The position numbers and the translations under genes were made by a program. A stretch of DNA of 64,000 nt, from positions 263,832 to 327,831 of the forward strand of contig CAWJRG010000010.1 of assembly GCA_963845185.1 (NCBI GenBank). The letters run 5' to 3'. Of the stretch, positions 3,714-43,773 are shown in pieces. The notes beneath the pieces were generated by a model. That model did not search any database. It was not told the origin of the DNA and worked only from the letters and a program-made list of their open reading frames with translations. The stretch comes from an uncultured bacterium. GTDB taxonomy: Bacteria; Oederibacteriota; PGYV01; CAWJRG01. The stretch's first letter is position 1. Each line of letters begins with the position of its first letter.

Positions 3714-3998
3714 TTAAATAATTTTCGGTACCTTAAACCCATTATTTTCTATCGAAGGCGCCGCGTCAAAAACTTTCTTTCTGTCAACTGTTTGCTTTAT
3801 TTCATCTTCCCTATAAACATTTTTCATATCAATAGTGTAAAAAGTCGGCTCAATATTGTCCGTATCAAGCTTTTGAAGTTTATTAATATGTTCAAGAATA
3901 TTCGAAAGCTGCTGCGCATATTTATCTTTTTCTTCCTCTGCTATCTCCAGCCGTGATAAATGCGCAATATACTCAACGTCTTTCTTTGTTATTGCCAT
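3714..3998 (-). CDS. gatC: Asp/Glu-tRNA amidotransferase subunit C
   Basis: 94 aa. The motif VEYIAHLSRLEIAEEE is typical of GatC. It is the first gene of the gat operon, with SD AGGAGT at 4004..4009. Confidence 0.93.
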   Translation of the reverse strand: MAITKKDVEYIAHLSRLEIAEEEKDKYAQQLSNILEHINKLQKLDTDNIEPTFYTIDMKNVYREDEIKQTVDRKKVFDAAPSIENNGFKVPKII

Positions 3999-4015
3999 GT
4001 TTCACTCCTAAATAT

Positions 4016-4108
4016 CGTTTGTTTTGTCAAGCTTCCAGCGCAGACAAAACATTACGAGATTTTGTACCCGCTCAAGTCCGAGGCCACTGGGCCGAGGACA
4101 AGTGGTGC
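4016..4108. repeat. structured intergenic repeat, copy A (three-helix element ending 6 nt from the gatC SD)
   Basis: Plus-strand reading: P1 is cgtTTGTTTTGtc / gaCAAAACATTACG. P2 is GTACC / GGTGC. The internal loop is CGCTCAA / AAGT. P3 is GTCC-GA-GGCC-actg-GGCC-GA-GGAC. The same architecture occurs at 6418, 6520, 9985 and 42391. Confidence 0.75.
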
Positions 4109-4185
4109 TTTAAAAATGCAAATAAATAACTTACGCCCGTTTTTGCGGGGTACTTTTAAACTTATCTTTTTTACCTGTACAAAAG

Positions 4186-4214
4186 AATTTATCATAAAAA
4201 AATAAAGTATTCAA
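4186..4214 (-). promoter_or_regulatory. candidate sigma70-type promoter upstream of repeat copy A and gatC
   Basis: Minus strand: TTGAAT, a 17-nt spacer, then TAAATT. It lies about 70 nt upstream of copy A. The match is only moderate. Confidence 0.3.
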
Positions 4215-4270
4215 GGTCTATCTGGAGATTGGAGGTTGATTGTATCCCCAAAAAACCGAATTTTACTGAT

Positions 4271-6089: not shown

Positions 6090-6407
6090 TTAATCTTTTA
6101 TTTTGATAAAAACCATTTTTACCGTGTCTTTTGTGTCGTTTGTTATACTGTGGTTTTCTTTTTTCTCCGCGGTGAACGCGTCGCCTGCTTTTACCCTGAA
6201 TTCTTTCCCGCCTGCCATAAACTTAGGTGCCCCGGACACAAAATAAAAAAGCTCAATCTCGTCTTCATGCGAGTGCTCGTTTATGGCATCTCCGGGCTTT
6301 ATATAAGCCACGCCAAGTGCATATTTTTCCGCGGTAAAAAGGTACTTCGAGCCAGACTGTTTTTCCTTATTTTTAAACTCCACCTCATTGTCGTTTACAT
6401 GTTTCAT
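6090..6407 (-). CDS. cupin domain protein
   Basis: 105 aa with the cupin motif HSHEDEIELFYFVSG. SD GGAGGA lies at 6411..6416. Confidence 0.8.
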   Translation of the reverse strand: MKHVNDNEVEFKNKEKQSGSKYLFTAEKYALGVAYIKPGDAINEHSHEDEIELFYFVSGAPKFMAGGKEFRVKAGDAFTAEKKENHSITNDTKDTVKMVFIKIKD

Positions 6408-6417
6408 TTTTCCTCCT

Positions 6418-6513
6418 AAGTAAGAGTTTATTTTGTAAACCCGCAGAGTGAAGCAAAATATTACTCTTGCTTACACCCGCTCAAGTCCCGATTTTACGAG
6501 GGACAAGAGGTGT
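6418..6513. repeat. structured intergenic repeat, copy B1
   Basis: P1 is aagagTTTATTTTG / CAAAATATTACTCTT. P2 is ACACC / GGTGT. The loop is CGCTCAA / AAGA. P3 is GTCCC-GA-ttttac-GA-GGGAC. It abuts the cupin SD. Confidence 0.75.
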
Positions 6514-6519
6514 TAAAGT

Positions 6520-6606
6520 CCGTCGATTTTGCCGGGTGTAAAAACCAAAGCCAAAATCTTACGGAATCTTGCACCCGTTCTTGTCTCCATAAGGAGTAAG
6601 TGGTTT
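6520..6606. repeat. structured intergenic repeat, copy B2 (degenerate, in tandem with B1)
   Basis: P1 is ccgtcGATTTTG / CAAAATCttacgg. This is followed by GCACCCGTTCTTGTCTCC-ataa-GGAGTAAGTGGTTT. It ends 7 nt from the stop of the upstream gene (6613). Confidence 0.6.
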
Positions 6607-6612
6607 CTTTTA

Positions 6613-8061
6613 TCATTTTTTTTTCTTATATAAAATAATATCCTTTGTTTCGATTTGTTTGTCGTAAAAAGATCTGAACAATTGCGAAAATGCTTCTTCT
6701 TTTTCCTGCCGCGTAAGGACAAAAAAATCAGGCGGGTTATCCGCCATTTTCGCCCCAAACGTTTCCATGTCGTGCTGATAATACCCGAAAGCGTAAGCGT
6801 ATACAAACCTGGAAGGCGCTTTAATGCCTGTCAGGAAATATATTTCAGGCTCGTTTGGCCATACAAACAAAGTGGTTTTGTCTGTTTTTCCCCTGTTTAT
6901 TATTTCTGCCACGGCGCTGCTCTCATAAAACATTTCCTTGGTATATACACCGCTTTTATAAAATTCTATCAATTTTAAATAATTGATGAAAAAAAATATA
7001 TTAGCGATGAAAAAAACTGCTAATACCGTTAAAGCCGCCTTGTAATTAGTTTTTTTTGTAATCATTGTATAAAAATCCCTGAACATTATTGCCGCAAGGA
7101 TAGCAAGTGCAGGAATAAAAACCATGTAATAATGTGCGTATGTATCCTTAAGTATTCTTATTCCTATATACATTGTTATTACAGAGAAACAAATTAAAAA
7201 ATTGACCCTGTCTTTTGGAGCTTTGAAAAGCTTGTATGCCGACCATAAAAAGGCCATAAGAAGCAACGCATTCGAGTTTATTATTAACCTTAAAACCGCA
7301 AAAAGTTCGTCGTTGTTAGTTCCGGTTGCTTTTGCGCCTATATAAAAAAGGTTGTACATGATGTTACAGTCAATAAAATAATTCAATATACCGTTTTTTA
7401 CGCACCATATTAATACCAGCAGGGTTATTGTCAGGAACCCAGCTGTGTACCATGCTGCGTAACTGATTAGGTCTTTTTTATTTTTATAGTAAAAAATAAG
7501 GTAAATAACCGGCGCCACAAACACGAATAAAACCATGGTTTTTATGTACACGGCTATGCCTATGAAAATGCCTGAAATAAAAAAGTTGACATGCGCATAT
7601 TTTTTTTCAATATCCGTTAAAAACAGCAATGATAAAATCAGGGGTATCTGCAGAAAAACCTCGGTATTGGCTGTTTCGCCCCCCATCATATAATTATTCT
7701 GGTATACCATGTATATAAGCGCTGCGAGCAGAGATAACCACCTACCGCTTATATGCCGCATAAAAATAAAAACAAGTATCATGGTTACAATGACGCATAA
7801 AGTTGTAAATGTCCTTATGGCATATACGGAAATCCCAAAAAAATCAAAAGCGGTTTTGTAAATATAATAAATAAAGGGCGGTTTCTGGTCAAAAGTGTCC
7901 TTATAGGGCAGTTCGTTATGGTATATGTGCTGCGCCATGTAGGCGTATGTGCCCTCATCCCTGTCAAGCGGCATGCCGGTAAACGGCACTCTTATGGCAG
8001 CCATAATTATTATTAACAGCAGCAGCATGCAGATTTCCAGTATGGTTATTTTCTTTTCCAT
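6613..8061 (-). CDS. ArnT/PMT-like (GT39/GT83-type) membrane glycosyltransferase
   Basis: 482 aa and polytopic. The N-terminal motif LDRDEGTYAYMAQHI..LPYKDTFDQKPP is typical of this GT-C family. Confidence 0.7.
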   Translation of the reverse strand: MEKKITILEICMLLLLIIIMAAIRVPFTGMPLDRDEGTYAYMAQHIYHNELPYKDTFDQKPPFIYYIYKTAFDFFGISVYAIRTFTTLCVIVTMILVFIFMRHISGRWLSLLAALIYMVYQNNYMMGGETANTEVFLQIPLILSLLFLTDIEKKYAHVNFFISGIFIGIAVYIKTMVLFVFVAPVIYLIFYYKNKKDLISYAAWYTAGFLTITLLVLIWCVKNGILNYFIDCNIMYNLFYIGAKATGTNNDELFAVLRLIINSNALLLMAFLWSAYKLFKAPKDRVNFLICFSVITMYIGIRILKDTYAHYYMVFIPALAILAAIMFRDFYTMITKKTNYKAALTVLAVFFIANIFFFINYLKLIEFYKSGVYTKEMFYESSAVAEIINRGKTDKTTLFVWPNEPEIYFLTGIKAPSRFVYAYAFGYYQHDMETFGAKMADNPPDFFVLTRQEKEEAFSQLFRSFYDKQIETKDIILYKKKK

Positions 8062-9970: not shown

Positions 9971-9984
9971 TTTAAACTCCTTAC

Positions 9985-10082
9985 GATAGCTTTTGTTTTG
10001 TCCAGCCGAAGGCGCCGGCAAAACATTACGCTATCTTGTACCCGCTCCAGTCCGAAGCCTACAGGCCGAGGACAAGCGGTGC
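9985..10082. repeat. structured intergenic repeat, copy C
   Basis: P1 is GATAGCtttTGTTTTG / CAAAACAttacGCTATC. P2 is GTACC / GGTGC. The loop is CGCTCCA / AAGC. P3 is GTCC-GA-AGCC-taca-GGCC-GA-GGAC. It ends 2 nt from the SD. Confidence 0.75.
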
Positions 10083-10116
10083 TACAATATCGTTTTGACT
10101 TTTTTTATCCTAAAGC

Positions 10117-10145
10117 ATTTTACTCAATTTTCCTACTTGTGTCAA
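10117..10145 (-). promoter_or_regulatory. sigma70-type promoter driving repeat copy C and the Memo-like operon
   Basis: Minus strand: TTGACA (10145..10140), a 17-nt spacer, then TAAAAT (10122..10117). It lies about 35 nt upstream of copy C. Confidence 0.5.
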
Positions 10146-27220: not shown

Positions 27221-27409
27221 AAAATAGAATAATCTCACTTTCAATTAGAATTTTAAGCCGGATTTCCTTTTGAGTTTTGCAGGAAAACGCTGAAATGCCT
27301 ACGAAGGAGCCTCCTCTTAATATGTAATAATATGCTCCCTCCCCGAAGCGCTATCATACCCCGACTCTACCAAGCGGGGTTTTTCGCGTAGCGGGATTAA
27401 TATATAAAG

Positions 27410-28137: not shown

Positions 28138-28686
28138 TTAGTTATTTATCGCAAACCAGTATTCGGCCAGTTGTCTCTCGATTTTTTCATAGTCCCTGAA
28201 ATACTTCTTAATATCCCAAAAAAATTCCCTGTTATGCCTTCTGTGCCTGAAATGGTTCAGCTCGTGGCAGACAATATAGTCTATCAGCCTCTCCGGCAGC
28301 TTTGACAGCGCGCAGTTTATTGTGATATTGCCCCTGCTGCTCCAGCTTCCCCATTTCGACCGCATGTTCTTGAAAAAAACTCTTGACGCCTTAACGCCCA
28401 TTCTTTGTTCGTTTTTTAGGATGGATTTTTTTACTATCCTCTTAAATTCATTCATCGTCCTGATTATTGGCACCAGTCCAGCCGCATTCTGCTTTATCGC
28501 CTGTATCTCGTTTATTTTCCTGTAAATCCAGTTTTTATGTTTCTGTATTATCCTCTTTTCGTCCATATGCCTTCTCGGCGCTATCAGGACAAGCCTGCCT
28601 GTTTTAAGCTCTATCCTTGCGTGCTTTACGTCCCTGCGTTCGACCCGGTACGTTACATCCAGGTCATTTATCCGTATTTTTTCCAT
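28138..28686 (-). CDS. YgjP/DUF45-like HExxH metal-dependent hydrolase
   Basis: 182 aa with the motif CHELNHFRHRRH near the C-terminus. It overlaps the 3' end of hsdR by 23 nt. Confidence 0.8.
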   Translation of the reverse strand: MEKIRINDLDVTYRVERRDVKHARIELKTGRLVLIAPRRHMDEKRIIQKHKNWIYRKINEIQAIKQNAAGLVPIIRTMNEFKRIVKKSILKNEQRMGVKASRVFFKNMRSKWGSWSSRGNITINCALSKLPERLIDYIVCHELNHFRHRRHNREFFWDIKKYFRDYEKIERQLAEYWFAINN

Positions 28687-31600
28687 AATCCTGCGCCCCT
28701 ATAATATCGGAAACTATGCTGCCTGATATCCTGTCCAGCTCATCCGGGTTATATCCCTTTTTCCTGAATATTCTCCTGATGATTTGCGTGACTGCCTTGC
28801 CTATTTCGGGGTTGGATATGTACTCGAGCATGTACTCGCCCTCCTCCCTGATTTTTTCCTTCACCTGTTTCATGCATTCCACGGCGTCCCCATCGCTCAG
28901 TTTTTCCTTTTTCAGCCGCAGGAACATGACATACTCTATATTGTCCAGCCCCAGCTCTTTTTGTTTGTTTTCCACTGCTTCTTTATCGTCGAATATGGCG
29001 TTCCCGGCTTTTATTATTTCCATGTAGGTTTTCACATTGCTCTGCCATTCCTGTATGAGCCGCATTACCCTGTCGGCCAGCTCCTCATAAATAGGGTTCT
29101 TTGCCTTGTCTACCAGTACATACTTTCGCAGGGCAAATATTATGCTCGCCGCCTTTTCTTCTGTCGGGTCCGCTTTCGCGAGCAGTTGCCTCATCCTTGC
29201 CTCGTCATACCGTATGCCCGGAAGCTCTTTTAAGCCTTTTATCTCCGTGCCCTTGTAAATATTTTCCAGCGTCCTCTTGAAATACTTGCGTATATAATAA
29301 TCTTTTTCCGGCTCGTCGAAGTTTTTCTTGTAGTAATAATAAAACGCGGTCAGCCATTTATATTCCTTTAAGAATTTTATCTTGACTTCAGAGCTTCCGA
29401 GCAGCTCGTACAGCCGCCTTGCCTGCCTGTATTTCTCGTCGAATTCAGCCTGCCGCCTGTCTTCGGAACTTATGAATTTCAGGATAGAAGTCAAGTGCTG
29501 GACATCATAATTCTCAAAATCAACTTTTCCTCTCTCCAGCAGCTTTTTTAATCCTTGTATTGTATCGGCAAACTTATCCGCCATTTTATCAAAGTCATAC
29601 AATATGTTTTCCCTGTCTTTCTCCTCATACGCCTTAAAAGCCTTGTCTATGTCGTCGAGCACGCCCACATAATCTATTACCAGCCCTGCTTCTTTTTCCT
29701 CATAGCGCCTGTTTGTGCGCGCTATCGCCTGTAAAAGCCTGTAATTTTTCAGGGCTTTGTGCAGGTATACGGTCTGCAAAACAGGCGCGTCAAACCCTGT
29801 TATAAGCATTTCCGTTACTATCAAAATCTTCGGGCTTTTATCGGCGTTGTCCTTGAATTTGGGCGTTATTTTCTTTTTGATTTCAGAAATATCTTTTTCA
29901 TTATATTTTTCAGTTATCCTGCTGTACTGCGCGGCTATTTTTTGGTCTGCTTCCTTTTGACCCATTGACATGACTATTTCGGTTTCGTCTTCGTCAAAAT
30001 ACCTGTCCAGTTCTTCCTTGTACAGGCAGCATGCATGCCGGGACGCGGCTATCACGACTGCCTTGAATTTCCCGTCAAGGTTGGCTTTAAAATGCCCCGC
30101 GATATCTTTTGCTACTATCTTGATTATTTCAGGATTTTCAAGGACTACGTTTATTTTACTTAGGCGTTCCCTGACCCCTTTTTCCACGTCTTCTTTCATG
30201 GTCTCGTTTATTTCATCTATATCTTCCTGGTCGTAAAAGAACTTGATAAGGTCCCTGTCCACGTGCACTTCATCCGTCAATCTCGGCTGGTAGGCTATTT
30301 CAAGCGTGTACCCGTCCCTGACGGAATCTTCCATAAAATACCGGTCAAGGTAAAGTTTGTCGCCGTATTCAAATTCTTTATAAGTGTTCCTTTCCCTGTT
30401 TGCTATCGGCGTGCCTGTAAAAGCAAAAAGGTTTCCGCTTTTAAATATGCTTTTCATCTGCGCTGATAAAATCCCGTATTGCGACCTGTGCCCCTCGTCT
30501 ATCAGGCAAATGACGTTTTTCCTGCCTGCTATGGTTGACTCGCTGCTGCCCGAGGCTTTTATTTCCTCTTCTATTGCCTTCATCTCGCTTTCAAAATCCC
30601 GTAGCTGGCCCGGATTAAACTTATGGATGAGCGTGACAAATACGCCCCTTTTGCCCCTGTATCCGTCGTGTTTCAGGATTTTCCGCAAATCCTCAATGGA
30701 TGAAATCGGTTCAATGTCGGAGAACAAATCAAGATAACCGAACTCGTCGAATAACTGGGTCTCAAGCTCCTCCCTGTCCACAATAAAAAAAATGGACGGG
30801 TTTGCCGCTTCCCTCATCTGGAAAAGCTTATTCGCGGCAAATATCATGGTAAGCGTCTTTCCCGAACCCTGCCAGTGCCATATCAGGCCGCGGTCTTTTT
30901 CCTTTTTCCCGCTTATCCTGCCTGTCACCCTTTTTACAATCTTATCAGTTGCCCTGTACTGCATATAGCGGCATATTACTTTGGTTTTCCTGCCACGCTC
31001 TTCCCTGAAAAATAAATAATATTTTATAATATCGAGCAGCCTGGCAGGCTCAAGCATTTCAATTATGTCAAATAAATCTTTTGTATTCGTAGAGACAGGT
31101 TTCAAACCTGTCTCAGTTTTATCCTGTATTTCTTCAATGGATTTCCACTCGTACATCTGCGGCAATTCCCCGTTCCATGGGACTATCGGGAAATACTTTG
31201 ACACGACATCAGCGCCGACTCCTATCTGGACATATTTGAATAATTCAGGTATTTTCTTTTCGTATGTTTTTATGTCTGTCACGGCGTCCAGCCAGCTCTT
31301 CCTCGCGCTTTCCGGACTTTTCAACTCTATGTTTACGAGCGGTATACCGTTGATATACAGCATTATGTCGCTCCGGATTTCCCTGTCTCCAGCCCTGTAA
31401 ACCGGCTGGTTCGTGACAATATATTCATTGTTTTCAGTATTATTGAAATCAATGAAATTAAGGTCTTTTAATATTCTTTCTTTCTTATCCTCCACTCTTT
31501 GCCCGAATTTGATGTATTGCAGGGCATGTTTCATGCCTTGCTCGGTCGTAGGAAGCATTTTAAACTCATGAATCTTGCGCGTGATTTCCTCAGGGCTGAT

Positions 31601-31759
31601 GTTTGTGGATTTATTGATTCTTTCTATGGCGTTTTTAAGGCTGTTTTCCAGCAATACATCCCCAAGCGAGTTCCTCACCAGCCCCGCCCCGGGTATGTAT
31701 TTCCATCCTGCTGCCTTTAACCGCTCTATAAACTGTTGTTCAAGACTTTGTTCTGTCAT
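28664..31759 (-). CDS. hsdR: type I restriction enzyme R subunit
   Basis: 1031 aa with an N-terminal nuclease-like region, helicase motif I (WHWQGSGKTLTM) and motif II (IDEGHRSQYG). The remaining SF2 motifs and a helical C-terminus are present. Confidence 0.93.
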   Translation of the reverse strand: MTEQSLEQQFIERLKAAGWKYIPGAGLVRNSLGDVLLENSLKNAIERINKSTNISPEEITRKIHEFKMLPTTEQGMKHALQYIKFGQRVEDKKERILKDLNFIDFNNTENNEYIVTNQPVYRAGDREIRSDIMLYINGIPLVNIELKSPESARKSWLDAVTDIKTYEKKIPELFKYVQIGVGADVVSKYFPIVPWNGELPQMYEWKSIEEIQDKTETGLKPVSTNTKDLFDIIEMLEPARLLDIIKYYLFFREERGRKTKVICRYMQYRATDKIVKRVTGRISGKKEKDRGLIWHWQGSGKTLTMIFAANKLFQMREAANPSIFFIVDREELETQLFDEFGYLDLFSDIEPISSIEDLRKILKHDGYRGKRGVFVTLIHKFNPGQLRDFESEMKAIEEEIKASGSSESTIAGRKNVICLIDEGHRSQYGILSAQMKSIFKSGNLFAFTGTPIANRERNTYKEFEYGDKLYLDRYFMEDSVRDGYTLEIAYQPRLTDEVHVDRDLIKFFYDQEDIDEINETMKEDVEKGVRERLSKINVVLENPEIIKIVAKDIAGHFKANLDGKFKAVVIAASRHACCLYKEELDRYFDEDETEIVMSMGQKEADQKIAAQYSRITEKYNEKDISEIKKKITPKFKDNADKSPKILIVTEMLITGFDAPVLQTVYLHKALKNYRLLQAIARTNRRYEEKEAGLVIDYVGVLDDIDKAFKAYEEKDRENILYDFDKMADKFADTIQGLKKLLERGKVDFENYDVQHLTSILKFISSEDRRQAEFDEKYRQARRLYELLGSSEVKIKFLKEYKWLTAFYYYYKKNFDEPEKDYYIRKYFKRTLENIYKGTEIKGLKELPGIRYDEARMRQLLAKADPTEEKAASIIFALRKYVLVDKAKNPIYEELADRVMRLIQEWQSNVKTYMEIIKAGNAIFDDKEAVENKQKELGLDNIEYVMFLRLKKEKLSDGDAVECMKQVKEKIREEGEYMLEYISNPEIGKAVTQIIRRIFRKKGYNPDELDRISGSIVSDIIGAQDYGKNTDK

Positions 31760-31802
31760 TTACCTACCTCTACGTAAAAAATATGAAGTAAAATTATATA
31801 AT

Positions 31803-33323
31803 TTAATCTCGAAAGAATACAGCTTCGCTATATCTCTTTGAGTTTTTTACAATTTCATTTGCTATTCTTTTTAATTCGATTTCTTTTTGAACATCATTTT
31901 TCCAAGCACGAGTAAAACGTAATTTCCATTTTTTTATTTTATTTAATGTTATTATCTGGGAATTTAAATAACTAAATATATCTTTTGACTTTTTATTTTT
32001 CCAATCTAACAAACTTTTAATTTGAAATTCATTATCTAATTTTGATGAAATTTCATCTAATAAATCAAAATGCAATTTTTTAGCGGATTTACAAAGTACT
32101 TTGGGAGGTAATTCTTGAATTATTTCCGCATAAGAAATACTTGTTTTCCATAAATTTTCTAAAGGTTGATTGTTAATTCCCTCAATAAAAATAGCTTCTT
32201 TTGCGCCAAAGAAAAAATAAATTAATTGCCTGAAATTATAATAATCTTGGTCATTAGGGACATCCTTCATATTAAATCTAAAAATGTCATCAGTTTTTAT
32301 ATTTATTACATATAATTCCGTCTTCGTTTTTCTATCATGATCCTTACTATTAATTATTTTTTTTCGTAAAATTTCAGAAAATTCGATAGCACTTAATCTA
32401 TTATTCTTAGGTTTAACTAAATATAAAGCTATTGATTTCGTACCAATTTGCGGAATATTAGAAGCAAATATTCGATTTCCCAAAACAATTATAGGTAACT
32501 TTGGGAGGTAATTTTTTTCAATATCTTTTGGAATGTTTTTACCAATTATTAAAAATGCTCCTTTTACTTTATCAAAAGTACCAGCATCTCTAAAAATTTT
32601 CTTATCTATTTTTTCTTGAATTATTTCTCTTAAAACACTATTTAATTCTGCTTTTTTATTAATTTCTTTTTGAAAAAAATCATACATTTGTTTAGCATTT
32701 AACAAGCGAGCAATTTCAAATAGAATTTTTAATGTGTTTTTAAATCCTAATTCATTATTTAAATTTTCCAATTTATTTTTTTCATTTCTTAAATTATAAA
32801 CATTAGCCATAACTCTTTCATTTCTTGTTGTTTTCTGAAAACTATATTTATTTAATCTTGTTATTATAAAATTTTTTAAATCTTTTAGCGTTGGTTCATT
32901 ATTTAAATCATGCGGTTTTGCGTTTATATATATATTCAACAAGCATATAAATATAAGAGCGTTATTAAATGGTTCATCTGCTTTAATAAGATTTTTCTCA
33001 AATATTTTTTCAATGCAATCTTCTAAACTAAGTGGATAGTCATCCGTTGCTTCAATCTTTTTAATATTACCAATAAAGACCAATGCGTTATAAATCCTAT
33101 CTATTATTTTAGTATTCCAGTCTTTATTGAATTTTTTTATCTTATATTCATCAATTACTTCTTTTAAAGCAAGCCACCCAAATGAAAATAAATTAATTAT
33201 TAGTTTAATTATAAGGTTTTGATCTTTTAATGTGGTAAAAGTCAAAATTAACATTATTCCTATAATTAATAAAAACAAAATCATATTTTTTTTATAAGTT
33301 AAAATAATTTTTTCAAATGTCAT
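31803..33323 (-). CDS. hypothetical membrane-anchored protein embedded in the type I R-M operon
   Basis: 506 aa. It has two N-terminal hydrophobic segments (ILFLLIIGIMLILTF and LIINLFSFGWLAL). I recognise no other motif. It is very AT-rich, and its start overlaps the hsdS stop by 11 nt. Confidence 0.6.
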   Translation of the reverse strand: MTFEKIILTYKKNMILFLLIIGIMLILTFTTLKDQNLIIKLIINLFSFGWLALKEVIDEYKIKKFNKDWNTKIIDRIYNALVFIGNIKKIEATDDYPLSLEDCIEKIFEKNLIKADEPFNNALIFICLLNIYINAKPHDLNNEPTLKDLKNFIITRLNKYSFQKTTRNERVMANVYNLRNEKNKLENLNNELGFKNTLKILFEIARLLNAKQMYDFFQKEINKKAELNSVLREIIQEKIDKKIFRDAGTFDKVKGAFLIIGKNIPKDIEKNYLPKLPIIVLGNRIFASNIPQIGTKSIALYLVKPKNNRLSAIEFSEILRKKIINSKDHDRKTKTELYVINIKTDDIFRFNMKDVPNDQDYYNFRQLIYFFFGAKEAIFIEGINNQPLENLWKTSISYAEIIQELPPKVLCKSAKKLHFDLLDEISSKLDNEFQIKSLLDWKNKKSKDIFSYLNSQIITLNKIKKWKLRFTRAWKNDVQKEIELKRIANEIVKNSKRYSEAVFFRD

Positions 33324-34530
33324 TTTTAATACCCCTTTTAATCCTTTGTTTTCCTGTCAAAAGTACATTTATAAGCCCTTTTTTCAGAAGTTCAAATTTT
33401 CCTTTTCTATTTTCTTCGATATTTAATTGTTTATCAATATTTGAAATAATAGAAGCAATTTCACGTTGTTCAATTATAGACAATTTAACAATCTTAAAAT
33501 TAACAATGTCCCTTTGAAAAAGATGGGGAATACTACTGCCGGATATTTTTTCCTTTATTAAGCTTGTAAAATTATTTGATTGGAAATATTGGAATACAAA
33601 TTCAGCATCATATAATTTTTCATCAGTTCTTATAAGCATCATTGTTCCATTTATAGTTGCCTTATCAGGCAATTCATCAATATAAGCCACTCTTCCAATT
33701 GTTCCATCTTTACTTATGATAATATCTTTTTCTTTTAAAATAATTTCATGCGATTCTTCATATCTTTCAATTGAAATATGTTGGCATCTATTCCAGATTA
33801 CTTTTCCGTTTTCAATATGATTACCTGCTATAAGATAGGGCCCCGATTTAGTATATTCTTTTGAAGATAATGCTCTCCATCCAATTCTTGCTTTAATATA
33901 TGAAAAATCTCCTAGCCTAACCACCTCCCACTCCTCTGGTATCTCCCCAAGTTCGGTTTTTTTAAACTTCTTATGCCCTATGCCTCTTGTCAGCAGTTTC
34001 TGCATCATGCCTTTTTTCAGCCGCTCGGTCTTCTGTATCTTCTCCTCCGCCATCGAGATGGCGTCGTCAACAGTGGACAAGACTTTGGCGATTTTGTTTT
34101 GCTCAATGATAGGAGGCATAACAGTTTTTCTTCTATACACAATGTCTCTATTTAATCCCGGAATAGCAGAGGAAGTTTCCATTTTTGATAAATCAAGCTT
34201 GTTTAATAAATAATAAAAGTATTTTAAATCAATATCTTTTTGCTTAAATTTAATAAAATATGTTGTATCTATAGCCCAAAAATCAGTATTGCACAAATGA
34301 ATTGACCCAATAGACCCCTTTCTACCTACTAATATACCCGGCCCCTTAGCATTGTAGGAATCGTGATTGCCAACAAGTCCATTTGAACCATATACCGGAT
34401 ATTTTCCTCCATCCCGTTCATTCCTTTTTAAGGCAGAACCATATTCAAGTGTACAAATATCCCCAATTGATATAAGGTTCCACTCTTCCGGTATCTCGCC
34501 AAATTCTGTTTTTTTATAGCCGGATTTCAT
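33313..34530 (-). CDS. hsdS: type I restriction-modification specificity subunit
   Basis: 405 aa with two target-recognition halves. Each is introduced by TE(F/L)GEIPEEW and followed by a conserved helix: LKKGMMQKLLTRG and LKKGLINVLLTGK. Confidence 0.92.
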   Translation of the reverse strand: MKSGYKKTEFGEIPEEWNLISIGDICTLEYGSALKRNERDGGKYPVYGSNGLVGNHDSYNAKGPGILVGRKGSIGSIHLCNTDFWAIDTTYFIKFKQKDIDLKYFYYLLNKLDLSKMETSSAIPGLNRDIVYRRKTVMPPIIEQNKIAKVLSTVDDAISMAEEKIQKTERLKKGMMQKLLTRGIGHKKFKKTELGEIPEEWEVVRLGDFSYIKARIGWRALSSKEYTKSGPYLIAGNHIENGKVIWNRCQHISIERYEESHEIILKEKDIIISKDGTIGRVAYIDELPDKATINGTMMLIRTDEKLYDAEFVFQYFQSNNFTSLIKEKISGSSIPHLFQRDIVNFKIVKLSIIEQREIASIISNIDKQLNIEENRKGKFELLKKGLINVLLTGKQRIKRGIKNDI

Positions 34531-35471
34531 TGCTTCTCCTCCCCAGCTTCATCCATTAACAAAACAAGCGAACCTAAAATCATGTACGTTTCTATTACGC
34601 ATAAATTAATATCTGTTTCTTTAAGATCGTTATGCGTTCCTTTCGAAAGTATATTATGGAGAAAAATTACTCTACTATCTAAATCGGATACCCTTGCCAT
34701 TAATAATTTTGCTTTATCGTCTTTTGCTTTTTGATCAATAAATGCAATAATTCTATTCTTATATTTATCATCTGTTACATCAATTTCTGTCCCGTCATTA
34801 CGAACAAATTTTTCTTTTCTAGCAGGAAATACCACATTTGCAAAAGCTTTAATTATATTTCGACATGTTGATAAGGCCTGCGACCATTCTTCAGGATTTG
34901 TTGAAGGAAGTCTGTCATATACAGCAATAAATTTGTCTATAATATCCGGAGAAATTTCCTGAAGTTTCTTATTAACATCTTTTTGCATTTTGATAAATAT
35001 ATCTTCAAGTATTTTTCCAAATTTATATTTGTGATTTATCCTCACAACATAAATATAAATATGTGATCGTATTTTTGCTAATAATCCCTTATTTTTCTTA
35101 ATTCTTGCAGCAAGATGATTTCCCTTTGAATCCTTATATGAAATTTGATCTGTTTCTATTTCACTTTCTATTTCCGGCACCGAATCAGTCCAATATTGAT
35201 ATATTTCTTTTCCCGCATTATCTTTTGTCTTTATATACCTTCCTGACCATCCAGCAAATGCTTGTAATTTATCATCTTTTATATCGGTAACATTCTGTTC
35301 TTGATAACCCATAAGTTCTGCAGCAAACCATTTTTCCGCCTCTTTATCATTTGTTAATCTTGCCAATTTTTGACACTTAAATAGAATCTTCTCAAAAGCT
35401 ATTCTGTCCATTTCAAAATCTGAAATAATTTCTTCAGATAAATCTATTATGTTTTTATCTCGTTCGCTCAT
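34527..35471 (-). CDS. AbiTii-like / helical (DUF4145- or HEPN-like) protein embedded in the type I R-M operon
   Basis: 314 aa. The N-terminus ILFKCQKLARLTNDKEAEKWFAAELMGYQEQ resembles, from memory, the AbiTii N-terminal module (..KC..LA..L.N...W...EL.GY). The C-terminus is a helical region ending LHNILSKGTHND. It overlaps hsdS by 4 nt. Confidence 0.6.
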   Translation of the reverse strand: MSERDKNIIDLSEEIISDFEMDRIAFEKILFKCQKLARLTNDKEAEKWFAAELMGYQEQNVTDIKDDKLQAFAGWSGRYIKTKDNAGKEIYQYWTDSVPEIESEIETDQISYKDSKGNHLAARIKKNKGLLAKIRSHIYIYVVRINHKYKFGKILEDIFIKMQKDVNKKLQEISPDIIDKFIAVYDRLPSTNPEEWSQALSTCRNIIKAFANVVFPARKEKFVRNDGTEIDVTDDKYKNRIIAFIDQKAKDDKAKLLMARVSDLDSRVIFLHNILSKGTHNDLKETDINLCVIETYMILGSLVLLMDEAGEEKQ

Positions 35472-35485
35472 AAACTCACCTCACA

Positions 35486-37273
35486 TTATTTTATCTCATT
35501 TAAATATCCTTCTATTTTCTTTTCCTTTAAAGTCAGTTCTTTCTCCAGTCCTTTTATCTCTTTCCAGACCTTATCCGTATCAATATCCTCGATTTCCTCT
35601 TCTTTAGAGCAGTACATGGTTACATTAAGCGACCAGCCATTGTTTTCAATTTCCGATATACTCACAACACGGGAAACGCCTTTTTTGCCCCTGTAACCGT
35701 CGTTATTTATAAATTCCCCGTAATAACCTTTGATTTCTTCAATATTTTTATCAGCAATAATATTTAATTTCCTGACATCGGGATGTTTTTCAAATAATCC
35801 GGAAGCGTTAATAAACAAAACCTTATTTTTCATCTCTTCTTTACGTTTTTTGTTTATAATGATTACACCGCCCGGCGCGCCCGTGTTATAAAAAAGCTTT
35901 TCAGGCAGCAGCATGACGCATTCGATAAGCCCTTTTGTTAAAACCGCCTGCCTTATATTTCCTTCTTTCCCGCTTCGGAACATTGCGCCGTTATCTATCA
36001 CTATACCCGCCCTTCCTTTTTTATCGTCAAGGCTTGCGATTACATGCTGTATCCATGCCCAGTCAGCGGACTGGTTGGGCGTAAAACCGTAGGTAAACCT
36101 TTCTTTTACAAAATTTCCTTTTTTAAGGTTTTCTTCGGGATACCCGTCCTGGTTCCACGGCGGGTTCACAAGGACAATGTCGAATGTTTTTAGTTTTCCT
36201 TTGTCCTCGAACTTCGGATATTTAAGGCTGTCGCTTAATTTCAAAACATCCTGCTTTATGCCGTGAATGTACAGGTTCATCTGCGCGAGCGCGACTGACT
36301 GGGCGTTTGCCTCCTCACCGTACAGGGAAAGGGTCTTTGCTTTTCCTGGCCCTTCCTTTTCAGTCACGTATTTATATGCCTGCAACAGCATATTTGCCGC
36401 GCCGCAGGCCGGGTCATAAACATTCTCGCCTGATTTTGGTTTTGTTATTTCCACAAGAAGCCTTATCACTTCTTTTGGCGTGTACACCTCGCCTTCCTTT
36501 GCCTTTTGCGGCGCGAAATACCTGATTATCCATTCATAAGAGTCTCCAAGCACGTCGTCGGAAACGTTTGAAAGCCGTTTTTCGCTGAACAGCTCGACAA
36601 GCTGCCTTAACAGCTCGGAATTTTCCTTGTTCCCGGAAAACTGGATAAAGGAAGTCTGTGATACTATTTCTTTTATCTTAGGGTTATGGTCGCCGATCTC
36701 CTTCAATATTTCCGACAACCCTTCGGGCAAATGGGACACATCGTTTCTTATGTTGTCCCAGAAATTCATATTGACACCCAGGTATTTGTCGGGCACGATA
36801 AAGTCATGATACGCTTCGTTCATGGCTTCTTTCTTTGCCTGGTTCTCCGAATACCCGTCTGCTTTTGCTTTTTCATATTCGTCTTCAAATTCCTTCTGCC
36901 ACTTATCGCTTATCCTTTTTAAAAACAAAAGCACGAGAATAAACTTATAATCAACCCTTGTGCGTATAAGGTCCGCCGCGCGTTTTAAAATCTTTTCTAT
37001 GTCATCCCTTGTCAATTCCTTGCTTTCGGAAAGCATTGGTTTCACCCCGTCGCCGCATTCCAGGAGCCTGTATATTTTTCTTCTGGCATTTTCCGGGTCT
37101 TTCACCACCTCAAGGCACTTATCCTTGCTGATGGAGGAAAGAATTGTCAATACCTGCTTTTCTTCGTCTCCATATGTGTCTTTAAGAATCCTGGCGGCAT
37201 TCTCAAACCTGAACTTTCCTTCTCCCAGTTTATCCTTTAATATCTGGTATCTCTTTCTAACCCATTTATCCAT
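35486..37273 (-). CDS. hsdM: type I restriction-modification N6-adenine DNA methyltransferase subunit
   Basis: 595 aa with SAM motif I (VYDPACGAANML), motif IV (VLVNPPWNQ) and an N-terminal HsdM_N-like helical domain. Confidence 0.93.
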   Translation of the reverse strand: MDKWVRKRYQILKDKLGEGKFRFENAARILKDTYGDEEKQVLTILSSISKDKCLEVVKDPENARRKIYRLLECGDGVKPMLSESKELTRDDIEKILKRAADLIRTRVDYKFILVLLFLKRISDKWQKEFEDEYEKAKADGYSENQAKKEAMNEAYHDFIVPDKYLGVNMNFWDNIRNDVSHLPEGLSEILKEIGDHNPKIKEIVSQTSFIQFSGNKENSELLRQLVELFSEKRLSNVSDDVLGDSYEWIIRYFAPQKAKEGEVYTPKEVIRLLVEITKPKSGENVYDPACGAANMLLQAYKYVTEKEGPGKAKTLSLYGEEANAQSVALAQMNLYIHGIKQDVLKLSDSLKYPKFEDKGKLKTFDIVLVNPPWNQDGYPEENLKKGNFVKERFTYGFTPNQSADWAWIQHVIASLDDKKGRAGIVIDNGAMFRSGKEGNIRQAVLTKGLIECVMLLPEKLFYNTGAPGGVIIINKKRKEEMKNKVLFINASGLFEKHPDVRKLNIIADKNIEEIKGYYGEFINNDGYRGKKGVSRVVSISEIENNGWSLNVTMYCSKEEEIEDIDTDKVWKEIKGLEKELTLKEKKIEGYLNEIK

Positions 37274-40664: not shown

Positions 40665-42001
40665 AGACTCTCCCTCACTGCTTTTGCAAAAAGGTTCATC
40701 TCGTTTTCCGTGCGTTTCTCTGTAACCGCGACAATAAGGTAATTGTCTTTGTTGTCGTAAAAAAGCGAGGCAGGCAGGCCTGCGCTGAATCCTCGGCTCA
40801 ACATTTTCTTGGTAAAATCCTCTGCCTTGACAGGCAGTTTTATCGTGAATTCGTTGAAAGTCTGGCCTGATTTCACCTCGATATTTTTTATTTGCATAAG
40901 TTTTTCTTTCAGATATCCGGCTTTTTCAAGGTTTATCAACGCGAGGTTCCTGAATCCGTCTTTACCGAGCAGGGAAAGGTATACTGCTGCACGTAAAGCG
41001 CAAAGTGCCTGGTTTGAGCATATGTTTGAAGTGGCTTTTTCCCTGCGTATGTGCTGCTCCCTTGCCTGTAAAGTCAGGACAAAACATCTTTTGCCGTTTT
41101 TATCGACCGTTTCCCCTGCTATCCTGCCCGGCATTTTCCTTGCGAATTTTTTGTCTGCTGTCATTATACCGAGGTACGGCCCTCCGAAAGAAAGCGGCAT
41201 GCCGAGCGACTGACCGTCTGCCACTGCAATGTCTGCTTTCATTTCTCCTGGCTTTTTAAGCAAGCCAAGGGATATAGGATAAAAAACAAGTATATTAAGA
41301 GCGCCTTTTGACGTTGAGTATTCAAAAATATCACTGTAATCGTCAACCACTCCAAAAAAATTCGGGTTCTGCATTATTACGGCCGCAGTATTGTCGTCTA
41401 TAAGCGAATTTATTTTTTTTCTGTCAGAGCTTATGTCGCTTAAATCAGCTTCGACTATCTCGACATCGAGGTTTATTGTGTATGTATATAGTATCCTTGT
41501 ATATAAAGGGTTTACTCCCTTATCTATTACGACTTTGCTTTTATTTGTTATCCTTATTGCCATTGCCATTGCCTCGTATAAGGCAGTGCCGCCGTCGTAC
41601 AAGGAAGCGTTTGCCGCGCCTAACCCGGTCAGCCGCGCCATCATTGTCTGGTACTCGAATATCGCCTGTAATGTGCCCTGGGAAGCTTCCGGCTGGTAAG
41701 GCGTGTATGCAGTGTAAAACTCAGAGCGCGAAGATACGCTGTCAACCGCAGCAGGTATAAAATGGTCATAATATCCCCCGCCTAAAAAATTCACGTAATC
41801 TATCCTGTTTTTATCAGCAAGCGTTTTAAAAACTTTCATTGTTTCATATTCAGTCATGCCTGCCGGGATGTTGAATGATTTTGGGGAAAATTCTCCGGGT
41901 ATGTCCTTAAATAAATCGGAAACAGACCCAATGCCTATGCCCGAAAGCATTTCCTTTACTTCTTTTTCAGTGTGAGGCGTGAATGTTGCCATTTTATTCA
42001 A
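40661..42001 (-). CDS. gcvPA: glycine dehydrogenase (aminomethyl-transferring) subunit 1
   Basis: 446 aa with FTPHTEKEVKEML and YTPYQPEASQGTLQAIFEYQT motifs. Confidence 0.95.
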   Translation of the reverse strand: MNKMATFTPHTEKEVKEMLSGIGIGSVSDLFKDIPGEFSPKSFNIPAGMTEYETMKVFKTLADKNRIDYVNFLGGGYYDHFIPAAVDSVSSRSEFYTAYTPYQPEASQGTLQAIFEYQTMMARLTGLGAANASLYDGGTALYEAMAMAIRITNKSKVVIDKGVNPLYTRILYTYTINLDVEIVEADLSDISSDRKKINSLIDDNTAAVIMQNPNFFGVVDDYSDIFEYSTSKGALNILVFYPISLGLLKKPGEMKADIAVADGQSLGMPLSFGGPYLGIMTADKKFARKMPGRIAGETVDKNGKRCFVLTLQAREQHIRREKATSNICSNQALCALRAAVYLSLLGKDGFRNLALINLEKAGYLKEKLMQIKNIEVKSGQTFNEFTIKLPVKAEDFTKKMLSRGFSAGLPASLFYDNKDNYLIVAVTEKRTENEMNLFAKAVRESL

Positions 42002-42380
42002 GGCCTTCTATGTATTTTTTGTACGCCGTTGTATCCATCAGGTTCTTGGTTTCAGCCGCGTCCTTTACTTCAATCTCTGCTATCCATCCGGCTGTATAAG
42101 GTTCTTTGTTTATAAGCTCGGGTGTAGCGTCAAGGCCGCTGTTTATTGCCACAACCTTGCCGGATAAAGGCGAATAAACGTCGCTTGCCGCTTTGACCGA
42201 CTCCACTCCTGTCAAAACCTCGGATTGTTTCACCTGCTTGCCTGTGGCCGGCAGCTCGACAAAAGTAATATCTCCTAATTTATGCTGGGCATAATCAGTA
42301 ATGCCGATTTTTGCTTTTGCACCTTCTATTTTTGCCCATTCATGTTCCTTTGTGAAATAGTAATTGTCAGGTACGTTCAT
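41994..42380 (-). CDS. gcvH: glycine cleavage system H protein
   Basis: 128 aa with the motifs YFTKEHEWA and lipoyl-lysine VESVKAASDVYSP. Confidence 0.96.
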   Translation of the reverse strand: MNVPDNYYFTKEHEWAKIEGAKAKIGITDYAQHKLGDITFVELPATGKQVKQSEVLTGVESVKAASDVYSPLSGKVVAINSGLDATPELINKEPYTAGWIAEIEVKDAAETKNLMDTTAYKKYIEGLE

Positions 42381-42390
42381 TTTAAGCCTC

Positions 42391-42558
42391 CTAGCAAGAG
42401 TTTATTTTGCAAACCGTCAACAGGTGCAGCAAAATATTACTCTTGCTAGCACCCGTTCAAGTCCGAGGCCGTCAGGCCGAGAGTTAAATAGTCCTGTGGA
42501 CTATTTAACGGGTAGCTTCCATAAGTTGGTATAATATAAAACTACCCACAAGTGGTGC
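42391..42558. repeat. structured intergenic repeat, copy D (expanded by two extra hairpins), between gcvT and gcvH
   Basis: P1 is CTAGCAAGAGtttATTTTGC / GCAAAATattaCTCTTGCTAG. P2 is GCACC / GGTGC. The loop CGTTCAA is followed by GTCC-GA-GGCC-gtca-GGCC-GA. Two inserted hairpins lie at 42482..42509 and 42510..42547, followed by ACAAGTGGTGC. It overlaps the gcvH SD by 2 nt. Confidence 0.75.
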
Positions 42559-42567
42559 TGGATATAT

Positions 42568-43662
42568 TCATTCGTTATTTTTTATTGAAGTATTCTTTAT
42601 AAAAGGCGGCGCTGTCACGATTGCCTCAGCCGCGCCCCTTTCTAGTTCGATTGTCAATTTGCCAGCCTCCTGGGAATATTCCCTATCAACGTAGGCAAAT
42701 GCTATTCCTTTATTAAGATGCGGCGAAAATACCCCGCTTGTAACAAATCCTTTTTCCCTGCCGTCCACCATTATTTTGTTCAAGTGCCTCGGCGTCCTCC
42801 TGCCATCCACTGCCAGCCCCACAAGTTTTCTTTTTATGCCTGCTGATTTTTGTGCAAGTAACGCCTGCCTGCCTGTAAATTCTTTTTCAAAATCAAGGAA
42901 CCTTTCCATGCCGGCGTCAAGCGGTGTGGTCTCTTCAGTTAACTCATCGCCGTATAAAGGATAGCCTGCCTCAAGCCTGAGAATGTCCCTTGCGCCAAGG
43001 CCAGCCGGTTTTACGTCAGGGTCTTTAAGCATGAGCCTCCACAAATCAATGCCCTTGCTTATATCCACGTAAACTTCAAACCCCAGCTCGCCCGTATACC
43101 CTGTCCTGCTTATTATGTACTTACCACCCAGCATGTCGAATAAATCAAAAGCATAATATTTAAGTTTTTTAATGTTGTCTCCTGCTATTTTTTTCATGGC
43201 AGACATTGCGAGCGGTCCCTGTAAATCAAGTTTGACCGTCCTTGCGGAAATATTCTCAAAAGAAGCGTTTTTCGAAAGCCCCTTGCTTATTATCTCCGCG
43301 TCCCGCTGCTCGTTTGAAGCATTTACTACTATCATCCACTCGTCGTCTTTTTTCCTGTAAATTATTAGATCGTCTATTATCGTGCCGTTTGGATTCAGGA
43401 GGAATCCGTACCTGCATATATTATTTTTCATTTTAACTAACGGGTTTGTTATTATTTTATCGAGCGACGATTTAGTAGGGTCTTCCTTTATCAGGAATTC
43501 ACCCATGTGGCATATGTCGAATACTGAAGCTTTTGTCCGGGTATGTTTTGATTCTTCGATTATGCTTCCATAGTGGATTGGCATGTTCCAGTCTGCAAAA
43601 GGAGCCATAAGTGCATTTAATTTTAAGTGTTCTTCGTAAAGTATTGTATTTTTATAGTCCAT
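42568..43662 (-). CDS. gcvT: glycine cleavage system aminomethyltransferase T protein
   Basis: 364 aa with LYEEHLKLNALMAPFADWNMPIHYGS and ISRTGYTGELGFEV motifs. Confidence 0.95.
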   Translation of the reverse strand: MDYKNTILYEEHLKLNALMAPFADWNMPIHYGSIIEESKHTRTKASVFDICHMGEFLIKEDPTKSSLDKIITNPLVKMKNNICRYGFLLNPNGTIIDDLIIYRKKDDEWMIVVNASNEQRDAEIISKGLSKNASFENISARTVKLDLQGPLAMSAMKKIAGDNIKKLKYYAFDLFDMLGGKYIISRTGYTGELGFEVYVDISKGIDLWRLMLKDPDVKPAGLGARDILRLEAGYPLYGDELTEETTPLDAGMERFLDFEKEFTGRQALLAQKSAGIKRKLVGLAVDGRRTPRHLNKIMVDGREKGFVTSGVFSPHLNKGIAFAYVDREYSQEAGKLTIELERGAAEAIVTAPPFIKNTSIKNNE

Positions 43663-43720
43663 TATTATTATCCTTTAATTGTGGGAACAAACTTAATCTA
43701 ATGATAAAATTTCGAATCAT

Positions 43721-43748
43721 TTTATAATAAAATCATTGAATACGTCAA
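43721..43748 (-). promoter_or_regulatory. sigma70-type promoter of the gcv operon
   Basis: Minus strand: TTGACG (43748..43743), a 16-nt spacer, then TATAAA (43726..43721). The leader is about 55-60 nt. Confidence 0.45.
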
Positions 43749-43773
43749 GGGCATATATTTTTTTGTAATTACC

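Follow-up and report, generated by a model that had tools for sequence, protein, structure and literature searches.

Small non-coding repeats in bacterial genomes are usually dismissed as clutter of the REP type or as miniature inverted-repeat transposable elements (MITEs). REP sequences are imperfect palindromes of 20–40 nt with a GTAG head that occur in either orientation, often as inverted pairs and as a rule 3′ of genes; terminal inverted repeats characterise Correia and ERIC elements, the former with a TA duplication as well, and MIRUs are tandem coding-compatible units. Here we describe a structured repeat of an uncultured bacterium that is present in five copies (A, B1, B2, C and D) in a 64-kb stretch of contig CAWJRG010000010.1, which was analysed over its whole length (the window hereafter). 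Members of this repeat family land with near-nucleotide precision beside the Shine-Dalgarno (SD) sequences of downstream genes, even in the atp, rpsF-ssb and gcv operons. With a probability of roughly 0.5, the element is a lineage-specific non-autonomous mobile repeat of ~100 nt (~170 nt with a nested module) that is site- and orientation-specific and targets the SD boundary.

Structured elements of other kinds offer further points of comparison. The attC sites of integrons are single imperfect hairpins with RYYYAAC and GTTRRRY core sites that form cassette arrays beside intI. The intercistronic RNase III sites of phage T7 are non-mobile single hairpins of a phage genome, and RiboJ is synthetic. 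Some ribozyme and second-messenger riboswitch classes occur in many copies per genome before unrelated genes. Insertion sequences of the IS200/IS605 family are served by the Y1 HUH transposase TnpA; IS608 has the flank TTAC, CR pairs with GR, and the cleavage sites pair with guides of four nucleotides located just 5′ of each hairpin foot (PMC3201880). The promoter-early stem-loops of T4-type phages are described as mobile regulatory cassettes tied to gain and loss of adjacent sequences (PMC2839356).

Placement of the repeat at the Shine-Dalgarno boundary

Coordinates and helix names of the window copies are read on the plus strand, their gene sense being the minus strand. An alignment (A2), a consensus fold and the covariance model R1 were built from 49 full-length copies. 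Searching JGI metagenomes for the core pattern yielded 50 loci, which stem from four peat or bog metagenomes, and in these loci together with the window (348 kb) R1 identified 76 copies, all in a single consistent orientation; copies beyond the five of the window thus do exist. About 14 of them are upstream members of tandem arrays. Among the roughly 60 array-terminal copies, ~55 lie 0–3 nt from the SD sequence of the downstream gene and always in one orientation; the abutment on SD sequences of unrelated genes that was first noticed in the window is supported. On the plus strand, nearly every copy is preceded by CAT-N5-9-CCTCC, i.e., the start codon and SD sequence of an opposite-strand gene. 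Automatic scoring recognised an SD sequence and a start codon after 50 copies, and several others were added by inspection. Between the CTCC core and the beginning of helix P1b there are 12–14 nt in 46 of 51 copies. About five copies are placed elsewhere: those of loci L029/L036, which lie upstream of a promoter, and those of L025/L034 and L053.

The downstream genes are unrelated to each other. In the window, Pfam detects GatC, Cupin_2, Memo and GCV_H domains, in agreement with the initial assignment of the neighbours as gatC, a cupin gene, a Memo-like gene and gcvH; in the metagenomic loci it detects atpD, ssb and nuoA. Other downstream genes, judged by eye from translations, include ribH, obg, grpE, typA and miaB, as well as genes for sugar-binding proteins, glycosidases, a serpin and surface proteins. 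Copies inside operons begin at −2 to +22 nt relative to the upstream stop codon and reach as far as the SD sequence, and the junctions that carry them include, according to Pfam, atpG-atpD, rpsF-ssb, gcvT-gcvH and an ECF sigma/anti-sigma pair. Since copies stand inside such conserved operons, the gene-sense strand is certainly transcribed there, as had been proposed for the window. The promoters, where present, are good matches to TTGACA-17-TATAAT with the −10 box 12–43 nt upstream of P2, which puts the whole element inside the leader. In locus L010, one copy (310–416) stands directly before a tiny hydrophobic open reading frame (ORF) (MWIAALIAAIFLFVYLIYAFF...; L010 230–310), suggesting that even very small genes have acquired the element. 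Such exact targeting of the boundary of a ribosome-binding site (RBS) is apparently undescribed; to our knowledge, a fixed position 0–3 nt from the SD sequence has not been reported for REP/BIME, ERIC/IRU, Correia or MIRU repeats.

Fold and covariation

The element is composed of two hairpin domains, P1, whose foot touches the SD sequence, and P2/P3. P1 is an interrupted helix of ~18 bp with a lower stem, P1a, of 7–10 bp, the 5′ arm of which begins 0–3 nt past CCTCC (the SD complement), and with TTT and ATTA as the two sides of an internal loop. The P1-P2 hinge measures 0–1 nt, and the spacing from TTAC to YACCC is 9 nt in all five window copies. P2 joins the last five nucleotides of the element (GGTRY) to YACC(C), a segment on the near flank of the P3 hairpin. 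The preliminary anatomy of P1 was wrong in part: the segment that it treated as a 7–8 nt linker is the 3′ arm of the covarying stem P1a. The tandem GA/GA, which had been called conserved, is seen in copies A, C and D but is missing from B1 and B2 and occurs in ~60% of the copies in the family.

Pairing statistics were calculated from a MAFFT alignment, which is not fitted to the structure. The covarying multi-helix fold proposed from the five window copies is upheld by these data: standard pairs fill 93.6% of the cells versus 82.5% in column shuffles (a share this high was attained in 0 of 500), pairing drops to 34–48% when the partners are slid by 1–3 columns, and 16 of the 29 pairs have changes on both sides, with a covariation score of 0.312 versus 0.125. 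Most of the covariation sits in P1a, with at least one covarying pair in each of P1b, P1c, P2 and the base of P3. The compensatory changes reported earlier are correct and recur across the 49 aligned copies. The R:Y pair of P1b is A-U in 25 copies and G-C in 20; the first pair of P2 is G-C in 31, G-U in 11 and A-U in two, and the second is U-A in 31, C-G in 10 and U-G in seven. Invariant positions (TTT, ATTAC, ACCCG-TC-AGTCC and GGACAAG-GGT) are mostly unpaired or belong to junctions.

The five copies in the window

The pattern CAAAAYNTTACN{6,16}ACCCGYTCNNGTC has five matches in the window where 0.00 are expected, all of them on the plus strand, and a repeat finder picks out the same copies A, B1, B2, C and D. 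The covariance model R1 places them at 4003–4109, 6412–6514, 6515–6606, 9977–10083 and 42386–42495 (the last running on to 42558) and finds no sixth copy in the 64 kb. The positions originally assigned are confirmed.

Copy A (4010–4108, minus strand; 107.6 bits with R1) makes up the last ~100 nt of the gatC leader. Its parts are P1a at 4010–4017/4055–4062, TTT at 4018–4020, P1b at 4021–4026/4045–4050, ATTA at 4051–4054, P2 at 4064–4068/4104–4108, J at 4069–4075, P3 at 4076–4079/4096–4099, GA/GA at 4080–81/4094–95 and the loop at 4086–4089; the SD complement (4003–4008) and the gatC start codon (3996–3998) adjoin them. Copies B1 and B2 form a two-copy array before the cupin gene. The SD-proximal copy B1 (6417–6513, minus strand; 90.2 bits), with the SD complement at 6412–6416 and the start codon at 6405–6407, belongs to the P1a subfamily GTAAGAG/CTCTTGC. 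The distal, degenerate copy B2 (6517–6606, minus strand; 31.3 bits) differs from it in its P1a subfamily (AGTCCG/CGGAAT) and starts 6 nt past the stop codon (6613–6615) of an upstream PMT_2-type gene, a label taken from the ortholog in L055.

Copy C (9983–10082, minus strand; 97.3 bits) occupies the 5′ untranslated region (UTR) of the Memo-like gene (SD complement 9977–9981, start codon 9968–9970). The sigma-70-type promoter TTGACA-17-TAAAAT at 10117–10145 (minus strand) drives the leader with this copy. It scores 11/12 and is kept in L024, whereas the other promoter of the preliminary description, near 4191–4220, is weak (9/12). Copy D (42391–42558, minus strand) fills the spacer between the gcvT stop codon (42568–42570) and gcvH (SD complement 42386–42391, start codon 42378–42380), and a nested module of ~66 nt (42482–42547), comprising the hairpin GTTAAATAGTCC-TGTG-GGACTATTTAAC plus GGGTAG...CTACCC, stands in place of the distal part of P3. 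Copies B2 and D do lie as close to the preceding stop codons as had been stated, at 6 nt and ~9 nt, respectively. Besides these copies, a remnant of the P1a 5′ arm, CTTGGTGGTG (51868–51877, minus strand; GATGATG/GGTGGTG subfamily), directly follows CCTCC at 51863–51867.

Taxonomic range and searches against known families

In the searches described here, copies turned up only in a small set of related, Goldbacteria-like uncultured bacteria from peat bogs. For two proteins of the window, the nearest named homologs come from Candidatus Goldiibacteriota/Goldbacteria, at 38% identity for a 605-aa membrane/TPR protein and 66–68% for GcvH. Through the same two proteins we reached loci of more distant relatives (36–43% and 68–71% protein identity), in which ~76 kb contained zero copies; a closer relative carries copies, though fewer. 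Among the GTDB species representatives, matches to the core pattern were limited to three, all due to chance and lacking the architecture, and viral contigs, plasmids and phages gave no match to the element.

No Rfam family fits the element, as the preliminary description had surmised. At the gathering score, Rfam 15 has nothing on the element in the window, and at E ≤ 10 there is no hit on it around copies A and D or in 10 further loci with at least 12 copies. The classes tested in this way include riboswitches, leaders, self-cleaving ribozymes, group II intron domains, HEARO, IS605-orfB RNAs and tRNA-like RNAs. Judged by these comparisons, its novelty with respect to curated RNA families and the searched mobile-element collections holds.

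Filled and empty sites, arrays and subfamilies

The gcv locus provides a filled and an empty site. Window segments 40678–42391 and 42576–43761 align at 75–76% identity to contiguous sequence of L060, the closest relative (84% GcvH identity). In L060 only 3 nt separate the gcvT stop codon from the gcvH ATG, and the end of gcvT contains the SD sequence, whereas in the window 184 nt (42392–42575), i.e., the element plus 14 nt, are inserted immediately 5′ of GGAGG. The C-terminus of GcvT reads ...IKNNE* in the window and ...IKYTEV* in L060. Copy D is a clean insertion relative to L060. Three outgroups have unrelated gcvT-gcvH spacers with no match to the covariance model. A target-site duplication at copy D (GAATGA versus GGAGGTTTGA) is too weak to claim.

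Other sites differ among relatives as well. L024/L055 lack copies B2 and C at the orthologous sites but keep copy B1 and the promoter upstream of the site of copy C; in their B1 ortholog, the outer pairs of P1a and P2 have changed in a compensatory way. At 51863–51877 the window retains only CCTCC and the P1a 5′ arm, where L041 and L027 have two full copies, and the remnant rules this position out as an empty target site. The gene after the remnant (51855–51880) is seemingly cut to ~26 codons (MKKLLPVIIFLFCFSIFAYAEKQWRC*), its L041 ortholog running further, and it may be a pseudogene.

Approximately five subfamilies can be distinguished, each with its own P1a sequence and P1 loop, and members of one subfamily at different loci are near-identical. 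Copy D and its nested module share 81% identity with a copy that precedes another gene in a different genome. The copy next to the SD sequence scores best with the model in 10 of the 11 tandem arrays, and at least five arrays combine different subfamilies. The simplest reading of the best-kept SD-proximal copies and the mixed arrays is repeated independent insertion at the SD boundary, with older copies probably being pushed upstream by new insertions and then decaying. The mobile MITE/REP-like unit, which had been one of several options for the window copies, is raised to the leading one by the filled and empty sites, the subfamilies, the mixed arrays and the decaying distal copies.

A proposed mobile repeat and the points against it

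As a mobile repeat, the element would insert in fixed orientation immediately 5′ (gene sense) of the SD sequence, i.e., directly 3′ of CCTCC on the plus strand, and this boundary would be chosen by the insertion machinery. It may constitute a “safe haven”, since an insertion there parts no gene from its RBS, damages no coding sequence and lets transcription pass. A trans-acting enzyme encoded elsewhere in the genome would recognise the element by its conserved unpaired nucleotides and by the pairing of its end in P2, the nearest mechanistic model by analogy being a HUH/Y1-type single-strand transposase that works by “peel and paste”, as in IS200/IS605. Within the mRNA, the element could be a tolerated and possibly co-opted structured spacer that acts as a 5′ hairpin or insulator beside an exposed SD sequence.

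Several observations weigh against this interpretation. The L016 ortholog of copy A is identical at 98 of 105 positions, compared with 84–86% in the flanks, so orthologous copies look as if each were under selection, an appearance that gene conversion could mimic. Changes at paired positions in ten orthologous pairs comprise eight standard-to-standard double changes, eight to G-T, 11 to A-C and nine to other mismatches, which suggests that the pairs are preserved at each site unless gene conversion between copies accounts for the pattern. Furthermore, the junction nucleotides are invariant in all subfamilies, as a functional RNA would predict. No transposase, of the Y1 type or other, and no other mobilising gene was detected, either by Pfam among selected window ORFs or by tblastn in ~350 kb with self-composed queries. 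At the left end, nothing 5′ of the P1/P1b foot is complementary to CTCC, so the guide geometry of IS200/IS605 is absent at this end. Copy D adjoins GGAGG and has 14 nt of extra sequence at its distal junction, and the flank motif doubles as the SD sequence; adjacency to it could stem from selection rather than from targeting. Finally, nearly all genes are encoded opposite to the strand with the flank motif, which is rich in C and T (GC skew −0.14). Gene orientation and skew suggest that this target-bearing strand is the leading-strand template, whereas IS200/IS605 elements prefer the other one.

The element as a possible leader RNA

Gene-sense leaders with the element were compared with 201 control genes from the same loci by partition-function folding. 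The accessibility of the SD sequence is 0.49 versus 0.43 in the controls (p = 0.13), and that of the start codon is 0.59 versus 0.46 (p = 0.001). Since the SD sequence is not sequestered, a simple translational off-switch is not indicated. SD sequestration or switching was rejected because the SD sequence is no less accessible than in the controls and CCUC motifs in P3 are not universal. Other candidate functions were also discarded. A gene-sense internal promoter, TTGAGC-15-TAATAT, has too short a spacer, and its −35-like motif is unconserved, with CTCCAG variants in ~30% of copies; −10 boxes overlapping P2 failed, the strong promoters having theirs 12–43 nt upstream of it. An intrinsic terminator or attenuator has a single weak, unconserved match inside copy A, and a small ORF in the element is confined to CAAAAC-type copies, its ATG being lost in the CAAAAT type.

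The main rival, which we regard as somewhat unlikely, is a host cis-regulatory leader RNA to which a lineage-specific protein, a small RNA, a small ligand or the 30S subunit itself would bind. Much like an intercistronic RNase III site combined with a protective 5′ hairpin or an RBS insulator, it would govern how the adjacent cistron is translated and processed or how stable its mRNA is, and it would have multiplied by duplication because of its usefulness. Such a role would fit the constant sense orientation and the P1 foot at the SD sequence, the occupation of junctions where the downstream protein is needed in larger amounts (atpG to atpD, gcvT to gcvH), the unpaired nucleotides that do not vary between subfamilies, the orthologous copies that outdo their flanks in conservation and have compensatory changes, the intactness of only the SD-proximal copy in arrays, and the slightly more accessible AUG. 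The generic feature of a cis-regulatory RNA, a conserved covarying structure in a 5′ UTR or intercistronic region, is present as well. On the other hand, the downstream genes share no common function, the clade is narrow, with relatives that have the same operons lacking the element, and no alternative structure sequesters the SD sequence. The features that would mark a riboswitch or leader are missing: the downstream gene set is incoherent and no platform that switches SD or terminator pairing was found. The near-identical paralog subfamilies and mixed arrays would still need a mobility mechanism, and a tandem U-C/C-U loop and A-C mismatches in P2 weaken the gene-sense fold. The mobile-repeat and leader-module readings are not exclusive, as a harmless or mildly beneficial mobile element would show every observed feature.

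Which strand folds

The whole element is 1.6 kcal/mol lower on the plus strand (30 of 49 copies, p = 0.01), and P3 alone favours this strand in 36 copies versus 10 (p = 4e-5). This stability can be attributed to the tandem G-A pairs and the GNRA-type loops, both of which exist on the plus strand only. G-T pairs exceed A-C in the outer pairs of P2 (18:2 and 9:2) and in one extension pair of P1b, and the family total is 71 G-T versus 36 A-C; in P1a the counts are eight versus 11, the same as in the orthologous pairs. Wobbles were rejected as a means of deciding the strand, since the excess stems from the two outer pairs of P2, one doubtful Y:G pair and the P1b extension. The ambiguity of the functional strand recognised in the preliminary description is borne out, with the gene-sense strand transcribed and the plus strand more stable, but its wobble argument for the plus strand fails family-wide, G-T and A-C being balanced outside two or three positions.

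It is accordingly conceivable, but in our opinion distinctly improbable, that the plus strand is the functional one, either as single-stranded DNA for an HUH-type or structure-specific enzyme or as a retro-mobile, ribozyme-like or cis-antisense RNA over the SD sequence. Its greater stability, its exclusive tandem G-A pairs and GNRA-type loops and the local G-T excess all speak for it, as does the conserved CCTCC 5′ of the element, reminiscent of an IS200/IS605 target. Arguing the other way are the balance of wobbles elsewhere and the failure of every Rfam ribozyme or intron model to fit either strand. Moreover, a plus-strand promoter conserved inside ~50 different coding starts is implausible, and as the transcription template, and apparently also the leading-strand template, this strand would rarely be single-stranded.

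The least probable reading, and a very unlikely one, is that many leaders contain a new riboswitch responding to a global signal, or a small self-cleaving ribozyme of a new kind. Against it stand the narrow range, the near-identical paralogs, the decay of distal array copies and the lack of expression-platform pairing with an SD sequence or terminator; in its favour are the two adjacent helical stacks with strictly conserved internal loops and a 0–1 nt hinge, the many copies per genome before unrelated genes and the absence of a fitting existing family. From range and paralog identity, either role looks less likely. The letters AUAUUAC and A-GUCC (for example, window 4047–4055 and 4074–4079) recur in loops B and A of the hairpin ribozyme, which likewise has two helices with internal loops around a hinge; the resemblance concerns the strand opposite to the genes, and the element escapes the Rfam Hairpin model.

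The mobile-repeat reading and the leader reading lead to different consequences. If the insertion machinery sets the position, the element exemplifies a new safe-haven strategy for mobile DNA, possibly with a new sequence- or structure-guided targeting. If selection sets it, a portable RNA module conditions translation or mRNA processing of many genes, which would bear on gene regulation in an uncultured phylum and provide a natural counterpart of synthetic RBS insulators. A more far-reaching prospect, which we hold to be rather unlikely, is an undescribed structured RNA spread by mobility and acting on >100 genes (a ribosome-docking or self-processing leader, or a global-signal sensor in a candidate phylum), which from its place at the SD sequence would control the translation or stability of many unrelated cistrons, or else a guide-directed single-strand mobile element that targets the RBS. 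The element offers a compact covarying fold, >70 natural variants and several filled/empty site pairs for direct tests.

Nested module and neighbouring repeats

The ~66-nt module consists of two hairpins, GYCAAATAGTCC-NNNN-GGACTATTTGRC plus GGGTAG..CCATAAG..CTACCC, and always has the same orientation. It is found in the P3 loop in the window (42482–42547) and in L012, L038 and L005, and in the P1 loop in L032, L051, L049 (5500) and L015 (4606 and 10917). We see in it either an optional domain of the element or a parasite nested in a parasite.

The genomes concerned also differ in insertions of two further small repeat families. A second repeated structured leader (50700–50900) lies upstream (gene sense) of dxr (49551–50699). 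It has the G+C-rich hairpin CTTCCCCCTCGACGGGGGAAG, and its next hairpin, TTAAATATTCC-AGCG-GGAATATTTAA, resembles the module nested in copy D. This leader has no Rfam match and is 81–85% identical to stretches in L021 and L043; a similar unit adjoins the L034 copy. A third repeat family is represented at window 27296–27405, with the consensus GCTCCCTCCCCGRAGCGCTAT...AAGCGGRGT.TTTCGCG.AG.GGGATTAA. One of its copies is present in L016 (1180–1410) where the window has only a terminator-like hairpin, CCCGTTTTTGCGGG (4133–4149), upstream of copy A, and another flanks the L045 element.

Short CCAAAT/ATTTGG/TTGGCATT repeats cluster upstream (gene sense) of several copies, namely in L027 (11330–11430), L041 (880–960), L025 (3470–3540), L015 (10735–10810) and L049 (5760–5830), and in L015 repeats of this type interrupt a P1 loop. 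The window also contains a type I restriction-modification locus (28138–37273) with HsdR (28664–31759), HsdS (33313–34530) and HsdM (35486–37273), together with an AbiTii-domain gene (34527–35471), an unannotated 506-aa ORF and a YgjP-like metallopeptidase.

Comparison with known systems

The element shares with REP/BIME, ERIC/IRU, Correia (CREE) and MIRU repeats that it is short, structured, multicopy, intercistronic or located in UTRs and co-transcribed, and that it has subfamilies and presence/absence differences among relatives. Like the mycobacterial MIRUs, it is orientation-specific and fills operon junctions. Unlike REP/BIME, it measures ~100 nt, has two domains and no GTAG head, and all 76 copies lie upstream of start codons in one orientation. 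It also differs from a classical MITE, as its ends (the P1a 5′ arm and GGTRY) are not inverted repeats and no direct duplication flanks copy D. Integron attC sites were considered and rejected, since the element has two hairpins, RTTTTG/CAAAAY of P1b misfits GTTRRRY and the flanks are scattered housekeeping operons. Judged by eye, the element also fits poorly, and was rejected, as a K-turn, as a tRNA-like fold or T-loop and as a sequence complementary to the 3′ part of 16S rRNA.

In what it could do in the mRNA, the element is analogous to the T7 intercistronic RNase III sites and a RiboJ-type insulator, being a repeated structured module with a long interrupted helix between cistrons, immediately before an exposed SD sequence; unlike the T7 sites, it is probably a mobile repeat. 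T4-type cassettes are likewise short repeated intergenic stem-loops, and they differ in being phage-borne and promoter-bearing, in acting by inter-cassette recombination and in having no reported SD abutment (PMC2839356).

The closest parallels are with IS200/IS605 ends and the gene-less PATEs, but they do not establish that the element belongs to this group. Some of the differences concern distances: the 5′ arm of P2 is 7 nt, not 0 nt, from the foot of P3, and the flank motif is 0–3 nt from the P1 foot and 12–14 nt from P1b, compared with 19 nt in IS608. Similar to both groups, the element lacks terminal inverted repeats and an evident target duplication and has subterminal hairpins at both ends (P1 on the left, P2/P3 on the right), the two ends not being inverted repeats of each other. 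As in IS200/IS605, its orientation is strict and it immediately follows, on one strand, a short conserved flank motif (CTCC, compared with TTAC in IS608), that strand carries the non-canonical tandem G-A and G-T pairs, and the terminal nucleotides of the right end pair, in P2, with a segment 5′ of the right hairpin, as CR does with GR.

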